From contig CAYIKL010000004.1 in assembly GCA_964364045.1 (NCBI GenBank), positions 1 to 46,786 of the forward strand: a stretch of DNA of 46,786 nucleotides, given 5' to 3'. Positions within the stretch are counted from its first letter, which is position 1, and every line of letters begins with the position of its first letter. The notes below the pieces were generated by a model. It was not told the DNA's origin, searched no databases, and saw nothing but the letters and a program-made list of their open reading frames with translations. Both the position numbers and the translations under genes were made by a program. Below, one piece after another: positions 37,277-43,197 of this stretch. Source of the stretch: an uncultured Methanosarcinales archaeon (GTDB taxonomy: Archaea; Nanobdellota; Nanobdellia; Woesearchaeales; JAGLXL01).

Positions 37277-38089
37277 ATGAACTATCAAAATATAAGAAAA
37301 GCGGTGCTGCTCTGGCCGCCTATCCATAAGCTCTACCACTTTATTGTCAGCCAATTAACAGACATGTACATTATTTCTTTTCCCAAGAGCGGGAGGACAG
37401 GAGTGCGCATGATGCTCGCAAAAACGATTGCTGATGCGTACAATAGACAGCTGAACCTTGACATGTATAAGATGACACTTCTCTCACGTATTCCAAACAT
37501 CAACACTGATCCACGCATCGGGAATTATTCAGTGCAGATGAATAAAGACGTAAAGATAACCAAAACCCAAAAAAGAAAAAAAATAATCTTTCTTGTCCGT
37601 GATCCAAAAGATGTGCTTGTCTCCTATTTCTTTGAATGGACAAAGCGACGAGAGAACAAGTACAATGGCACGTTATCTGAGTTTATACGGGAAGACTTTA
37701 CCCTGAAACGGCTCATCCGCTTTATGAACGAGTGGATGGAAGAGAAAAAACGGAGAAATGATGAGGTGCTGCTCGTCAAATATGAAGACCTCCACAAAGA
37801 TAGGCAAGCACAGCTCAAGAGAATGCTTGATTTTGCAGGGATTAAAGCAAGCGAAGCAGTCATCACAAATGTCCTTGAATACACCACTTTTGAAAACATG
37901 CAGAAGATAGAGAAGGAATGTGCATTCAAGGGTGATCATCGCCTGACCGCAACAGATGCCAAGGACAAGGACAGCTTCAAGATGCGCAAAGGCAAAGCCG
38001 GCGGCTATAAAGAATACTTAAGCAGTGAAGATGTTGACTATATCAATGCGGAGATAAATGAAAGTTTGAATCCGGGATTTGGGTATTAA
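37277..38089 (+). CDS. Sulfotransferase-domain protein
   Basis: ISFPKSGRT (5'-PSB), LVRDPKDVLVSYF (3'-PB), KYEDL, FENMQ, RKGKAGGY. Confidence 0.93.
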   Translation: MNYQNIRKAVLLWPPIHKLYHFIVSQLTDMYIISFPKSGRTGVRMMLAKTIADAYNRQLNLDMYKMTLLSRIPNINTDPRIGNYSVQMNKDVKITKTQKRKKIIFLVRDPKDVLVSYFFEWTKRRENKYNGTLSEFIREDFTLKRLIRFMNEWMEEKKRRNDEVLLVKYEDLHKDRQAQLKRMLDFAGIKASEAVITNVLEYTTFENMQKIEKECAFKGDHRLTATDAKDKDSFKMRKGKAGGYKEYLSSEDVDYINAEINESLNPGFGY

Positions 38090-38093
38090 AACC

Positions 38094-38909
38094 ATGACGC
38101 TTTCTTTACCCTTTGATGCGATGGATGAAACGAAACTTGCCATCAAAGCAGCATTGGAAGCAGGAAAAGTGATCATGGAAGTATACACCTCAAACTTCTC
38201 AACAGAAAAGAAAAAGGGTAATGAAGTTGTGACCGCAGCAGACAGACGGAGCGATGCAATCATCCGCACCGTGCTTTCACGCTCGGGCTATCCTATATTA
38301 TCAGAAGAGAGCGCTGACGACAAGACGCGTTTGCAGCATTCAAGAGTATGGATTGTCGATCCATTAGACGGGACGTTAAGCTTTGTTGAACGGAAAGATG
38401 ACTTTTCGGTGCTTATCGGATTAGTTGAGGATGGCGTGCCGATCATGGGTATTATCTATGCGCCAGCAAAAGGATTTTTGTATCTTGCTGAGAAAGGAAA
38501 AGGCGCGTTCGCGCTCGAGAATAGCACATCACGGCTTCATGTCAATAAGATTGAATTAAAGAAATGTGTTCCAATCATGAGCCTTCACCGCCTTTCTGAA
38601 AAGGATGAAGCATTTGTTCACAGCCTTGGCATCACTGATTTTACGCGCATGGGAACCTGTGGCATGAAAATCGTTGAAATCTGCAAGGGCAATGCTGATT
38701 TTTACGTCCTCTCGACAAACAAAATCTATCATTGGGACACGTGTGCGCCGTGGGTATTGCTCAATGAAGCAGGAGGAAAATTCACTGATGTGTATGGAAA
38801 TGCACTTCGCTATAATACTGAGAATGTCAACCACACCAATGGCATTCTTGCCTCAAACGGGTATGTGCATGATGAGTTGGTCAAGAGGTACAAAGAATTT
38901 CACCTGTGA
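38094..38909 (+). CDS. cysQ: 3'(2'),5'-bisphosphate nucleotidase
   Basis: VTAAD, ILSEE, WIVDPLDGT, WDTCA, EAGG. Confidence 0.92.
   Translation: MTLSLPFDAMDETKLAIKAALEAGKVIMEVYTSNFSTEKKKGNEVVTAADRRSDAIIRTVLSRSGYPILSEESADDKTRLQHSRVWIVDPLDGTLSFVERKDDFSVLIGLVEDGVPIMGIIYAPAKGFLYLAEKGKGAFALENSTSRLHVNKIELKKCVPIMSLHRLSEKDEAFVHSLGITDFTRMGTCGMKIVEICKGNADFYVLSTNKIYHWDTCAPWVLLNEAGGKFTDVYGNALRYNTENVNHTNGILASNGYVHDELVKRYKEFHL
38286..38894 (+). repeat. cysQ direct repeat, copy A (copy B at 42580-43182)
   Basis: Identical blocks: 38286-38368 = 42580-42662 (83 nt) and 38795-38894 = 43083-43182 (100 nt). Confidence 0.9.
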
Positions 38910-38929
38910 GTTCGGAATGTTGGATTGTA

Positions 38930-40641: not shown

Positions 40642-40642
40642 G

Positions 40643-41737
40643 TTACACCGTCTTTATGTATTCCTTCTCTCTTCTCTCATTTGTGTAGGCATCAAAGTAT
40701 CCAACAACAATGCGGTAATATCTTTCACCTTTCTTTGGCGTCACAAGCTCGAGCAGGCCGCAGGCATTTATCGTTTCGCCGGTCAATGCTTGCTGGACGA
40801 ACGGAATGGAGTATGTTACGACCATTTTTATTGGAATATGCTTCTCGATATGCGGCTTTTCGTGGTCTCCATCTATCACTTCGGCATCTTCTATTTCATA
40901 TAATCCGGGTCGTACATGGCTATTGTAATGATCAATGACTTCTGCTTTTATCGTTGTAAGTCCCATGGGCGTGTACTGCTCTTCTCCCCATTTAAACCAT
41001 GTCTCTTCAGGCTCTTCAGTTGTAAATAATGTAAAGACTGTCCCACCAAATGTGCCTTCGTACCGTTTGCGTATCATGTGCTTGACATATTCCTGTTCAG
41101 TGAAATGAGCCGACTCGGATGTCTTGTGCTCTTTGTAGTATTCAGCCCATTCTTCTTCACTCTTCCATTTCAGTTTCTCATGCGTTGCTGTTTTGAGATA
41201 ATTCAATATTTTCCAGCCGTTGTCCTTGCCGTAGATAATGATGTCAATATCCGATCTTCCTGGTGTGTAGTTGCCCAGCAGTGTTGAATGGGTGATGCCC
41301 AGGTCGGTTGTCGCGACACCGCTTGCTGCGAGAAATTCAATCAGTTCCCTAACAAGTATCAAATATTGGTCGCAATCTTTTTTGGGCACTTTCATCAGTT
41401 CCTGCAGCCCTTTTCTTCCATCATGCACTGTTTTTATCTTATTTTTCGGAACAACAAAGAACCAGTTGTTATGGATGGGTGAATGGTAGATATAATCTGG
41501 AAATTTTTTCTTGTACTGCTCCAAATATCCATTTAATCTTTCTTTTTGTGCAAATAAATTAAATCGTATCAGGCATTTCTCGAAAAGAAAGCGGTATTTT
41601 AATCCCTCTCCTGTAATTAAGTCAGTAGGAATGTATTTTGGCTTGACAATGATGTAGCCGTCGGGGTGTTCGCTGGCGTACGATTTACACTGGAAGCCAT
41701 CCACCGTATCGATTAGTGTTGATTCGTAAAAGTGCAT
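40643..41737 (-). CDS. Pol-beta-type nucleotidyltransferase (archaeal COG1665-like), paralogue A
   Basis: EHP...KPKYIP, LGITHSTLLGNYTPGRSDIDIIIYG, GETINACGLLELV...YRIVVG. Confidence 0.8.
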   Translation of the reverse strand: MHFYESTLIDTVDGFQCKSYASEHPDGYIIVKPKYIPTDLITGEGLKYRFLFEKCLIRFNLFAQKERLNGYLEQYKKKFPDYIYHSPIHNNWFFVVPKNKIKTVHDGRKGLQELMKVPKKDCDQYLILVRELIEFLAASGVATTDLGITHSTLLGNYTPGRSDIDIIIYGKDNGWKILNYLKTATHEKLKWKSEEEWAEYYKEHKTSESAHFTEQEYVKHMIRKRYEGTFGGTVFTLFTTEEPEETWFKWGEEQYTPMGLTTIKAEVIDHYNSHVRPGLYEIEDAEVIDGDHEKPHIEKHIPIKMVVTYSIPFVQQALTGETINACGLLELVTPKKGERYYRIVVGYFDAYTNERREKEYIKTV

Positions 41738-41898
41738 TTTAACAGTTTAATTTTTTTGGCAATATACTCACTTCTCCTCCCCAATCTAGCCGAGGTTGGA
41801 GGTATTTAAAGGTTTGGTGATTTTGCCGCTTATTTAAGCACATAATATACGCTCTGGCAAGCCAAATCTTTTTAAACTTTCCTCTTTATGGCGCATCT

Positions 41899-43197
41899 AT
41901 GGGCATTGTTGTATGGTTCACCGGGTTAAGCGGTTCGGGGAAGTCAACGATAGCGAACGCATTGAAGAAGAGGCTTGAAGAAAAAGGAAAAACAGTCGAG
42001 ACTCTTGATGGCGATGTTGTCAGAGAGAAGCTGCATCGGCATCTGGGCTTTTCACGGGAAGACATCGGGGAAAATAACCGGCTGATAGCGGAGTTAGCAA
42101 AGAAAAGCAGCGCTGATGTTGTGCTTGTTCCGGTCATCGCACCCTACCGGGAAGACCGAGAGATGGCAAGAAAAATAATAGGTAAATGCTTCTTCGAACT
42201 TTATGTCAATGCTCCTCTGCACGAATGTATTCGGCGCGATGCCAAAGGGCTGTATAAAAAAGCACAAGCTGGTGAAATCGACCTCATCGGTTTCATCGGT
42301 CCAAACACATACGAAGCGCCGGAAACGCCAGACATTGAGGTAACGACACTTGGTACATCTGTTGCGGAGAACGTTGAGGAGATTATGAACCTATTATTCC
42401 TTCCTTTTGATGCGCGTGATGAACTCAAGCTTGCAATCAAGGCTGCGCTGAGTGCGGGAAAAGCAATCATGGAAGTATATGCCTCAAACTTCTCAACAGA
42501 AAAGAAAAGCGATAATGAGCCGGTGACTGTGGCGGATACACGAAGCGATGCAATCATCCGTTCCGTGCTTTCTCGTTTTGGCTATCCTATATTATCAGAA
42601 GAGAGCGCTGACGACAAGACGCGTTTGCAGCATTCAAGAGTATGGATTGTCGATCCATTAGATGGAACCTCGAGCTTTGTTGAAAGGAAAGATGATTTTT
42701 CTGTCCTTATCGGATTAGTTGAGAATGGTGTGCCGGTTATAGGAGTTATCTATGCGCCGGCAACAAGATCTTTGTACATCGCTGAAAAAGGAAAGGGGGC
42801 TTTTGCGATTGGCGCATCACGGCTTCATGTCAATAAGACTGAACTGACAAAATGCATTCCCATCATGAGCTTTCACCACCTTTCCGAGCATGACAAGGCG
42901 TTTGTTCATAGTCTTGGCATCACTGAGTTTGCACGCATGGGAAGCTGCGGCATGAAAATCGTTGAAATCTGCAAGGGCAATGCTGACTTTTACATCAGCT
43001 CCACAAACAGAATCAAGCAGTGGGACACGTGTGCACCATGGGTATTGCTCAATGAGGCGGGAGGAACATTAACTGATGTGCGTGGAAATGCACTTCGCTA
43101 TAATACTGAGAATGTCAACCACACCAATGGCATTCTTGCCTCAAACGGGTATGTGCATGATGAGTTGGTCAAGAGGTACAAAAAATTTCAATCCTGA
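41899..43197 (+). CDS. cysC: APS-kinase-like (CysC) - CysQ fusion protein
   Basis: N-terminal WFTGLSGSGKST (P-loop), LDGDVVR, LGFS, RDAKGLYKKA, YEAP; C-terminal CysQ domain with ILSEE, DPLDGT, WDTCA. Confidence 0.92.
   Translation: MGIVVWFTGLSGSGKSTIANALKKRLEEKGKTVETLDGDVVREKLHRHLGFSREDIGENNRLIAELAKKSSADVVLVPVIAPYREDREMARKIIGKCFFELYVNAPLHECIRRDAKGLYKKAQAGEIDLIGFIGPNTYEAPETPDIEVTTLGTSVAENVEEIMNLLFLPFDARDELKLAIKAALSAGKAIMEVYASNFSTEKKSDNEPVTVADTRSDAIIRSVLSRFGYPILSEESADDKTRLQHSRVWIVDPLDGTSSFVERKDDFSVLIGLVENGVPVIGVIYAPATRSLYIAEKGKGAFAIGASRLHVNKTELTKCIPIMSFHHLSEHDKAFVHSLGITEFARMGSCGMKIVEICKGNADFYISSTNRIKQWDTCAPWVLLNEAGGTLTDVRGNALRYNTENVNHTNGILASNGYVHDELVKRYKKFQS
42580..43182 (+). repeat. cysQ direct repeat, copy B
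   Basis: See copy A; offsets are 4294 and 4288 nt. Confidence 0.9.

Follow-up and report, generated by a model that had tools for sequence, protein, structure and literature searches.

A conserved nucleotidyltransferase-HIT operon beside an APS kinase without a known sulfate adenylyltransferase partner: a candidate source of an activated donor in Woesearchaeales-like archaea

Sulfate is activated for transfer by a short pathway, in which an ATP sulfurylase (Sat or CysDN) forms adenylyl sulfate (APS), the APS kinase CysC converts it to 3'-phosphoadenylyl sulfate (PAPS), sulfotransferases use the PAPS, and the phosphatase CysQ removes 3'-phosphoadenosine 5'-phosphate (PAP). The contig CAYIKL010000004.1 (assembly GCA_964364045.1; 46,786 nucleotides, the whole of which is called the window) comes from a Woesearchaeales archaeon and holds the later genes of this pathway around an operon of three genes, the triad: NTaseA, NTaseB and HIT-like, encoding two nucleotidyltransferases and a HIT-fold protein. 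The window genome, G000 (G-numbers denote genomes, L-numbers loci and P-numbers proteins), has a bona fide APS kinase, but the known sulfate adenylyltransferase partner of that kinase is absent from the assembly. Among Woesearchaeales-like DPANN archaea the triad is a genuine and conserved accessory module, located within cell-surface glycan clusters. It hardly ever co-occurs with the known sulfate adenylyltransferases and is linked to enzymes acting on 3'-phosphorylated nucleotide donors. We tentatively propose, with a probability of about 0.4, that it forms APS in G000.

In the proposed mechanism, NTaseA as the catalytic subunit and NTaseB, which has lost its second catalytic aspartate, would form a pseudo-symmetric heterodimer that joins a nucleoside monophosphate (NMP), taken from a nucleoside triphosphate, to an oxyanion. 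The HIT-fold protein, which carries an HxHxK motif and resembles Ap4A phosphorylases, would assist the heterodimer through nucleotidyl exchange or a phosphorylase-type reaction. The product in G000 would be APS, which the neighbouring canonical CysC-CysQ would turn into PAPS; two sulfotransferases would then use the PAPS to sulfate a glycan, and two CysQ domains would clear the PAP. We infer that the oxyanion is sulfate and, in the same way, which of the two chemical steps comes first and what the HIT-fold protein does.

An APS kinase without its partner

The G000 assembly, which represents a reduced DPANN genome, has 957,624 bases in 51 contigs, of which the window is contig 4, and a completeness of 97.34%. 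Its PAPS-type set comprises one APS kinase scoring above cut-off, two CysQ domains and two sulfotransferase (ST) genes. The initial annotation had pointed out that no sat or cysDN gene occurs in the 46.8 kb, and this extends to the whole assembly, in which Sat (PF01747), CysD (TIGR02039) and PAPS_reduct (PF01507) each gave 0 matches. None of the triad proteins matches Sat in Pfam, and the sole homologue of the HIGH-motif adenylyltransferases in G000 is a full-length NMNAT (1f9a, 1.7e-25). The relevant genes of the window are as follows.

37277-38089, plus strand: sulfotransferase (ST); Pfam Sulfotransfer_1 at 7.8e-31, with PKSGRT and RDPKDVLVS motifs in the translation
38079-38909, plus strand: CysQ-like 3'(2'),5'-bisphosphate nucleotidase; Pfam Inositol_P at 7.3e-53, TIGR01331 at 4.2e-50, under its cut-off
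38930-39568, minus strand: HIT-like, a HIT-fold protein (P0001) by its model, bearing the motifs CxxC and HxHxK; third and final gene of the triad
39571-40641, minus strand: NTaseB (P0002), paralogue of NTaseA in which D-I-N replaces D-x-D in sequence alignments
40643-41737, minus strand: NTaseA (P0003), with a Pol-beta-type nucleotidyltransferase core and a C-terminal OB fold, from model and alignments
41899-43197, plus strand: CysC-CysQ fusion of an APS kinase (Sat-fused clade) and a PAP phosphatase, from Pfam, TIGR00455 apsK and a tree
29241-30206, plus strand: divergent sulfotransferase-like gene, the second in this glycan island; Sulfotransfer_1 at 4.1e-6, found again in the genome search

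The ORF list bears out the layout and the gaps of 1 and 2 nt that had been claimed for the operon: 1 nt (40642) separates NTaseA from NTaseB, and 2 nt (39569-39570) separate NTaseB from HIT-like. The triad lies on the minus strand, convergent with the ST-CysQ pair, whose two genes overlap by 11 nt, and the CysC-CysQ gene diverges from NTaseA across a spacer of 161 nt.

The CysC and ST of this set are canonical, and the two CysQ copies are probably so. The CysC part of the fusion (41899-42400) scores 182.5 bits with TIGR00455 apsK, above the curated cut-off of 138.7, and Pfam finds APS_kinase at residues 2-148 (2.5e-50) and Inositol_P at residues 176-424 (2.4e-56). The two window CysQ copies clearly match Inositol_P and reach 170.7 and 182.4 bits with TIGR01331, whose cut-off is 228.8; it is the top family for the stand-alone CysQ and the top phosphatase family for the C-terminal part of the fusion. 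The window ST has both motifs of a PAPS-dependent sulfotransferase, PKSGRT for the 5'-phosphosulfate-binding (5'-PSB) and RDPKDVLVS for the 3'-phosphate-binding (3'-PB) element, by the general definitions of these motifs.

In a CysC tree, 14 triad-linked kinases from other genomes form a clade of their own (support 99/94), apart from the Sat- and CysDN-linked CysC and marked by changes of ENIRR to N-x-H-x-K-R and of KGLYK to KGHYK. The window CysC lies outside this clade and groups, with support of 100/100, with the Sat-CysC fusions of G013 and G032 and the CysC-CysQ fusion of G094, to which the window fusion is 50% identical over 436 residues. It stands divergently upstream of NTaseA, which is the position of the triad-type CysC in seven other loci. 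That the position of a triad-type CysC is taken by a kinase whose clade-mates are fused to Sat is the strongest argument that the triad product in G000 is APS.

Folds and motifs of the triad proteins

The initial annotation had read the triad as two Pol-beta-type nucleotidyltransferases and a HIT-like protein, and both identities were recovered from predicted structures, as a Pol-beta core on the NTaseA model and a HIT fold on that of P0001. Sequence comparison yields less. Single-sequence and profile searches of the PDB with the triad proteins gave no match, NTaseB and HIT-like match no Pfam or NCBIfam family, and NTaseA has only a sub-threshold Pfam match to NTP_transf_2 (0.0015; 19.3 bits against a cut-off of 21). 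The fold assignment of NTaseA covers residues 120-245 and 255-364 of a model with a pLDDT of 92.8. Residues 120-245 are a Pol-beta nucleotidyltransferase core, for which the best match in a wide search with VIA was PolX (3au2; Z 7.1, root-mean-square deviation (rmsd) 2.8, 88 aligned residues), followed by Trf4 (3nyb, Z 6.8), TUT7 (8oef, Z 6.8) and a CCA-adding enzyme (Z 6.0). Residues 255-364 are an OB fold, best matched by the MCM N-terminal domain (4me3, Z 6.3) and then by SSB and RPA. Foldseek with the same model returned nothing at E<=1e-3, and neither TiaS-like nor RelA/SpoT-synthetase-like structures were among the matches of the NTaseA model with Foldseek or VIA.

The signature of Pol-beta nucleotidyltransferases consists of hG[GS], D-x-[DE] and a third carboxylate. 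NTaseA carries it as H-S-T-L-L-G...S-D-I-D, with His in place of Gly before the Ser, and S151, D163, D165, E241 and E245 are invariant across 26 A-type sequences (alignment A3). NTP_transf_2 matched 26 of the 34 members of the family alignment A1, which is the number of its A-type rows, and 0/8 of its B-type rows. NTaseB, 47% identical to NTaseA, lacks the second metal-binding Asp of the D-x-D: all eight B-type rows of A1 have D-I-N, and N166 is invariant in a 20-row alignment (A4). From these substitutions NTaseB is probably a non-catalytic partner. A LicD-like identity, which the S-T-L-L-G...D-I-D pattern had brought to mind, was dropped when a scan of each family member against Pfam gave no LicD match.

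Structure prediction also pairs the two paralogues. The predicted NTaseA/NTaseB complex scored 0.70, against 0.00 for the best of three controls; this score is reached by 58/80 solved complexes and 2/110 mismatched pairs, counts that hold only roughly here because our own alignments were used. Contacts agreed by at least 95% between runs, with a partner pLDDT of at least 87, and the predicted interface (residues 47-55, 105-126 and 153-159) is pseudo-symmetric and would adjoin the catalytic motif. Conservation of NTaseA across families is unusually high (54-79% identity). A profile of the nucleotidyltransferases found 955 cluster representatives at E<=1e-3 and 599 at 1e-10, and the ESM Atlas, used as a lead only, connected P0003 with archaeal clusters bearing NTP_transf_2. 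PADLOC gave no defence-system match for the triad, one weak PHP match aside.

The HIT fold of P0001 is clearer. Its model has a pLDDT of 86.9, and with it every row among the Foldseek matches listed belonged to the HIT superfamily or was GalT-like (probability up to 1.00), while VIA gave 84 chains at Z>=8. The top neighbours are mycobacterial Ap4A phosphorylases (6af2, Z 13.7, rmsd 3.6, 136 aligned; 3ano, Z 13.4, rmsd 3.1, 132 aligned), with a generic HIT protein (Z 12.4) and Fhit (Z 11.4-11.7) only 1-2 Z units lower. An hhalign comparison with 20 canonical HIT proteins was colinear (probability 46%, E 2e-4, 135 columns), and the ESM Atlas, again as a lead only, assigned P0001 to HIT/DcpS_C at 0.91. 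The HIT Pfam family matched 0/30 members in the scan of each, and the search with HIT-like found 299 relatives. Residues C18, C21, H140, H142 and K144 are invariant across 30 sequences. The superfamily motif is H-x-H-x-H-x-x; P0001 has H140-L-H142-I-K144, so that the canonical histidine triad is broken by a Lys in place of the third His, with the presumed nucleophile His retained. Tandem canonical HIT-domain ORFs (G000:C5:29377-30248 and equivalents), which are kept in many genomes of the order, are distinct from the HIT-like gene of the triad.

A conserved module and its partners

A scan with one genome per species found the triad at 29 loci in 29 other species genomes, whose source names include Woesearchaeota, Nanoarchaeota/Nanoarchaeia and Aenigmarchaeota. 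Gene content across the order was taken from a sample of 151 genomes; two of these (G112 and G132) are unpublished and count only in tallies over the 151. The two sets are not summed, because they probably overlap (L003/G160 and G101 have the same coordinates). By tblastn, the NTaseA-NTaseB pair is present at every one of the 29 loci that extends far enough, and HIT-like directly follows NTaseB in 21/21 loci with sequence past NTaseB. Genes of the module are also fused to each other and to their partners: NTaseB-HIT in L031 (10084-11754, 556 residues) and P0245, HD-NTaseA in P0243 and Phosphodiest-HD-NTaseA in P0246. No description of the operon was found in the literature at the level of titles and abstracts; supplementary gene lists of DPANN studies, outside that scope, could bear on it.

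The gene after HIT-like encodes a PHP protein of about 290 residues in 18 of 20 loci and an HD protein in the other two (L009, L016). The best NCBIfam match of the PHP proteins is NF041577, 3',5'-nucleoside bisphosphate phosphatase, at 1e-51 to 1e-57 and under its 400-bit cut-off, with a nearly equal score for RNase RNM. Their PDB relatives include Cv1693 (2yb1, 7e-28) and RNase AM, and the 5'-3' exoribonuclease 7ug9 also matched. The HD partner has weak matches of RelA/SpoT type. G000 has no PHP or Phosphodiest homologue in its assembly, and the window CysQ stands where relatives have the PHP phosphatase gene. The conserved core is the triad plus a phosphatase, with or without a cytoplasmic enzyme of the alkaline-phosphatase superfamily, and not the triad plus CysC and ST. 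The alkaline-phosphatase-superfamily partner, a Phosphodiest-family protein, precedes NTaseA in 14/29 loci and also in L030 and L031 from the order sample; it is predicted to be cytoplasmic, with no transmembrane (TM) segment and no signal peptide, and has no PDB sequence relative at E<=1e-3.

Cytoplasmic sulfatase-family proteins also lie by the triad in five loci (L002:7137-8495, L006:4014-5261, L008:5292-6485, L023:5485-6603 and L025:14214-15674). In the PDB they are related to S1 sulfatases and phosphonate monoester hydrolases only.

The initial annotation had called for a look at whether homologues of the triad are linked to cysC, cysQ and sulfotransferase genes and anti-correlated with sat, and this pattern emerged to different degrees. 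An APS-kinase gene adjoins the triad in 12/29 loci, fused to PHP in two (L001, L005), downstream of PHP in three (L017, L019, L020) and divergently upstream of NTaseA in seven (L004, L006, L010, L013, L022, L026, L029). Phosphatases of the 3',5'-bisphosphate-nucleotidase type occur at nearly all loci, and ST-family genes adjoin the triad, besides the window, in 4/29 (L009, L010, L016, L025). Sat was found in 0/29 triad genomes and true CysDN in 2/29. A combination of Sat elsewhere in the genome with unlinked homologues is not what was seen, since no Sat was found and the homologues are linked to cysC and ST genes.

Genome-wide, 15/29 triad genomes have an APS kinase, and 17 of the 151 order-sample genomes have a strong one (E<1e-40). 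Among genomes with a strong CysC, Sat or CysDN is present in 2/16 with the triad and 11/16 without it (Fisher p=0.003; the relatedness of the genomes makes the contrast look stronger than it is). The 16 strong-CysC genomes of the order sample other than G000 comprise five with Sat, six with CysDN beside CysC, three with a fusion of a HIGH-motif adenylyltransferase to CysC, and two with CysC at a contig edge. Three further triad genomes have only a CysD-like protein of about 270 residues. In the order sample this type is common in genomes without CysC (for example G145:C69:3153-3758 and G085:C1:269426-270034), with about 180-240 bits to TIGR02039 over positions 1-205 only; it is probably not a sulfate adenylyltransferase subunit.

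The fusions just mentioned have about 300 residues, with a 130-residue HIGH-motif adenylyltransferase and an APS-kinase-like domain (L071:721-1635 in G051; on the minus strand, L074:233-1144 in G041, L106:1088-1969 in G082 and L107:1059-1937 in G098). The closest PDB entry to the first domain is the archaeal NMNAT 1f9a (8e-7), with phosphopantetheine adenylyltransferase (PPAT) at 1.5e-3. The DGD motif has been lost from the kinase domain of the fusion in G051 and G041, where a stand-alone CysC adjoins; in G082 a 255-residue ORF, CysQ-like by eye, follows the fusion gene. G041 is also one of the five Sat genomes. The fusion is a candidate for either a compact ATP sulfurylase/PAPS synthase or a CoA synthase resembling PPAT and dephospho-CoA kinase (DPCK). 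The CysC of G051, G082 and G098 had been considered as orphans that would weaken the argument from G000, an objection rejected on finding that these kinases are fused to an adenylyltransferase domain.

Around the triad one consistently finds glycosyltransferases, flippases and NDP-sugar enzymes. The remainder of the window forms a glycan island of this kind, with GT2 and GT4 glycosyltransferases, methyltransferases, an MFS transporter and a polytopic membrane protein. A 648-residue protein at 35213-37159 (minus strand), predicted to span the membrane about 11 times and matching no Pfam family, adjoins the MFS transporter (34023-35180, minus strand), and its homologues lie near the triad in L001, L002, L017, L020 and L028. 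The island also holds two carbamoyltransferases of NodU/CmcH type and two B12-binding radical-SAM enzymes (13565-15280 and 43188-44945, minus strand; 7576-8991 and 15649-17244, plus strand), which together suggest that the surface glycans of this 0.96-Mb genome are heavily decorated.

What the triad makes

The formation of APS by the triad is favoured for G000 because the window CysC belongs to the canonical clade with Sat-fused members, and HIT-superfamily enzymes that act on APS are known, namely APS:phosphate adenylyltransferase and Apa1/2. Several observations weigh against it. Some concern G000 itself. The genome gave no match for a SulP sulfate transporter, and a Sat gene could have been missed, because completeness is 97%, leaving 3% of the genome unassembled, and because the Sat gene of G094 sits on a 3-kb contig. 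APS formation is energetically very unfavourable, and the driving force for the triad is not evident.

Others come from relatives. An APS kinase at E<=1e-10 was not found in 14/29 triad genomes, and the order-sample triad genomes G116, G043, G075, G101 and G115 have no CysC or only weak P-loop matches; four of these five have no APS kinase, two of which, G116 and G043, reach 100% completeness. Within the family of G000, where the triad is full in G116 and G154 and partial in G152, CysC and Sat are each present in 0/5 genomes, which points to the addition of canonical CysC-CysQ and ST-CysQ to an older triad in G000. G166 (L009), G173 (L016) and G182 (L025) have an ST with motifs of the 3'-phosphate-binding type by the triad and no CysC. 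Conversely, the two triad genomes with CysDN, G163 and G186, have a true CysD with adjacent CysN. Since about half of the triad genomes are without CysC, the triad core does not need it, and the earlier statement that nucleotidyl transfer is the only missing step is too simple.

The partners and paralogues of the triad add to these points. Neither the Phosphodiest proteins, frequent at the triad, nor genes of the CDP-alcohol phosphatidyltransferase family (CDP-OH_P_transf), present in nine loci, have a known role in sulfate activation; together, the alkaline-phosphatase-superfamily and CDP-alcohol-transferase partners suggest phosphoester chemistry. The C/SxPxR formylglycine motif is present in 0/5 of the sulfatase-like proteins (first 160 residues), which therefore probably rely on Ser or Thr as nucleophile. 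Structures resembling NTaseA come from nucleic-acid enzymes and from OB folds that bind nucleic acid; all are at Z<8, and the likeness may stem only from a shared arrangement. A wider family of nucleotidyltransferases of about 345 residues, 25-30% identical to those of the triad and also in tandem pairs, makes up the profile matches given above and was followed in 24 metagenome loci (L082-L105; proteins P0263-P0391). These pairs adjoin Ftr (seven loci) and a RimK-type ATP-grasp ligase (five loci), lie near FwdA- and FwdC-like genes, Mch, FolE2/MptA and an HD protein, and one representative (P0327) is fused to HPPK. This gene company suggests that the distant pairs serve an unassigned step of methanopterin biosynthesis, and their place by methanopterin/C1 genes points to organic phosphate substrates in that branch.

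Could the triad make a different donor? It is possible, if short of probable, that it joins a nucleotide to another group, forming NMP-X or NDP-X with an organic phosphate, phosphoramidate or a similar group as X. Where present, the triad-type CysC would 3'-phosphorylate this donor in the manner of Cj1415 or, in CoA synthesis, of dephospho-CoA kinase; Phosphodiest/sulfatase-like or CDP-alcohol-type enzymes would move X to glycan, PHP, HD or CysQ would remove the resulting nucleoside 3',5'-bisphosphate (pNp), and the PAPS genes of the window would be a separate sulfation branch that landed beside the triad. This option stays in play because the triad-linked CysC clade is separate (99/94), with systematic changes in its kinase motifs, and because the partners are not those of sulfur metabolism. 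Besides its place in the operon in 14/29 loci and its fusion to NTaseA in P0246, Phosphodiest is commoner without CysC, in about 12/15 loci against 4/16 with it (L030, L031 and the window counted). The CDP-OH_P_transf genes and the distant pairs in methanopterin clusters fit as well, and Cj1415-Cj1418, which produce CDP-phosphoramidate 3'-phosphate, offer a precedent (PMC11800397). The window CysC is harder to place in such a scheme: it holds the triad-type position, belongs to the Sat-fused clade and sits in a genome otherwise without an APS source. ST-family genes with PAPS-type motifs recur by the triad, and no gene that would make X (glutamine kinase, PEP mutase and the like) was noticed among the conserved neighbours, although homologues of Cj1416-1418 were not searched for. 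The linkage and the absence of Sat partly support the initial proposal of an activated donor. The data do not separate APS from another NMP-X.

An improbable alternative is that nucleic acid is the substrate of the nucleotidyltransferase pair, or that the pair makes signals in the form of oligonucleotides or nucleotides, with HIT-like, PHP (of the RNase AM or pNp phosphatase type), HD and Phosphodiest serving turnover or repair in a glycan setting that is incidental. The core of NTaseA is indeed nearest to RNA- and DNA-directed nucleotidyltransferases and its C-terminal OB fold is like those of SSB, RPA and the MCM N-terminal domain, and its conservation (54-79%), the near-equal RNase RNM score and 7ug9 match of PHP and the weak RelA/SpoT-type matches of HD point the same way. 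These structural matches all stay below Z 8, however, PADLOC found no defence family beyond the one weak PHP match, and the module occurs in only 6/151 order genomes, a patchiness that argues against a housekeeping RNA function. The consistent company of glycosyltransferases, flippases and NDP-sugar enzymes, and the linkage and fusion to APS kinase, are hard to account for under such a role.

It is more doubtful still that the adjacency arose by chance in a hypervariable glycan island, with APS or PAPS drawn from a host (DPANN archaea are scavengers) or made by a Sat in the unassembled 3%: CysC-CysQ and ST do look recently acquired, their closest relatives being in Sat-bearing genomes while same-family genomes have the triad with neither CysC nor Sat (0/5 each), and the G094 Sat lies on a 3-kb contig, but the linkage recurs independently with a different CysC clade at 12/29 loci, including PHP-CysC fusions in the operon, Sat is found in 0/29 triad genomes, and CysC-CysQ and ST-CysQ flank the triad exactly at the CysC and PHP positions of its relatives.

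The formation of APS by the triad would have consequences beyond this genome. To our knowledge only two types of sulfate-activating enzyme, Sat and CysDN, have been described, and PAPS-dependent sulfation and both assimilatory and dissimilatory sulfate reduction all depend on them. With a third system unrelated to these, genomes, those of DPANN archaea in particular, would have to be read differently for sulfur metabolism, and two sizeable unannotated families, the nucleotidyltransferases and HIT-like, would gain a function. Should the triad make a different 3'-phospho-nucleotide donor, only one such system, the Campylobacter phosphoramidate pathway, would precede it, and an unknown surface chemistry in episymbiotic archaea would be indicated. 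A much bolder version is a long shot: the triad and its 3'-phosphatase partner would be a self-contained third route to activated sulfate, unrelated to Sat and CysDN, in which the phosphorylase-type HIT protein and the heterodimeric Pol-beta nucleotidyltransferase make APS. In the many triad genomes with sulfotransferases of the 3'-phosphate-binding motif type and no P-loop kinase, the 3'-phosphate would come from the degenerate NTaseB, perhaps acting as a RelA-like 3'-pyrophosphoryl transferase whose product PHP, HD or CysQ would trim, and the pairs in methanopterin clusters would activate a phosphate ester.

The nearest known systems include the PAPS pathway. The window CysC and ST are canonical by profile, motif and phylogeny, both CysQ copies are probably of the canonical kind, and the triad is proposed as the first step; the differences are that G000 has neither Sat nor CysDN, that the Pol-beta and HIT folds of the triad are unrelated to HIGH-motif Sat or to CysD/CysN, and that about half of the triad genomes are without CysC. 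The PHP proteins of relatives match 3',5'-nucleoside bisphosphate phosphatase (Cv1693, 2yb1) and RNase AM and would be functional analogues of CysQ, which takes their place in the window genome; the PHP matches stay below the 400-bit cut-off. CoA synthesis (PPAT and dephospho-CoA kinase) with phosphopantetheinyl transfer proceeds by analogous steps, in which a phosphate is adenylylated, the 3' position is phosphorylated, the group is transferred and pAp (3',5'-ADP) is removed; pantetheine chemistry is not evident at the triad.

The nucleotidyltransferase of the Campylobacter phosphoramidate pathway has a different fold from those of the triad. In the O-methyl phosphoramidate (MeOPN) locus of Campylobacter jejuni (Cj1415-Cj1418), an APS-kinase-family enzyme 3'-phosphorylates a nucleotide-activated non-sulfate group for glycan decoration (PMC11800397). 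This pathway is the model for another NMP-X donor, and differs in that the window CysC groups with Sat-fused kinases. No genes of a MeOPN-type pathway (glutamine kinase, CTP:phosphoglutamine cytidylyltransferase, gamma-glutamyl-CDP-amidate hydrolase) were noticed among the annotated neighbours in the window and loci, although no dedicated search for Cj1416-1418 homologues was made.

At the level of the proteins, NTaseA shares its core fold, Ser motif, D-x-D and downstream Glu with the Pol-beta nucleotidyltransferases (PolX, Trf4/TUTases, CCA-adding enzyme, aminoglycoside nucleotidyltransferases), from which the triad enzymes differ as an obligate paralogue pair with one degenerate member, with novel flanking domains and no Pfam match above cut-off. 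The HIT-like model has Ap4A phosphorylases (Rv2613c, 3ano; Mycobacterium avium, 6af2) as its top structural neighbours, from which it is set apart by the lack of a sequence match, by HxHxK in place of HxHxH or HxHxQ, and by an insertion of about 50 residues. In Ap4A phosphorylase, APS:phosphate adenylyltransferase and Apa1-2, which are HIT enzymes, the acceptor of AMP is an inorganic oxyanion and not water.

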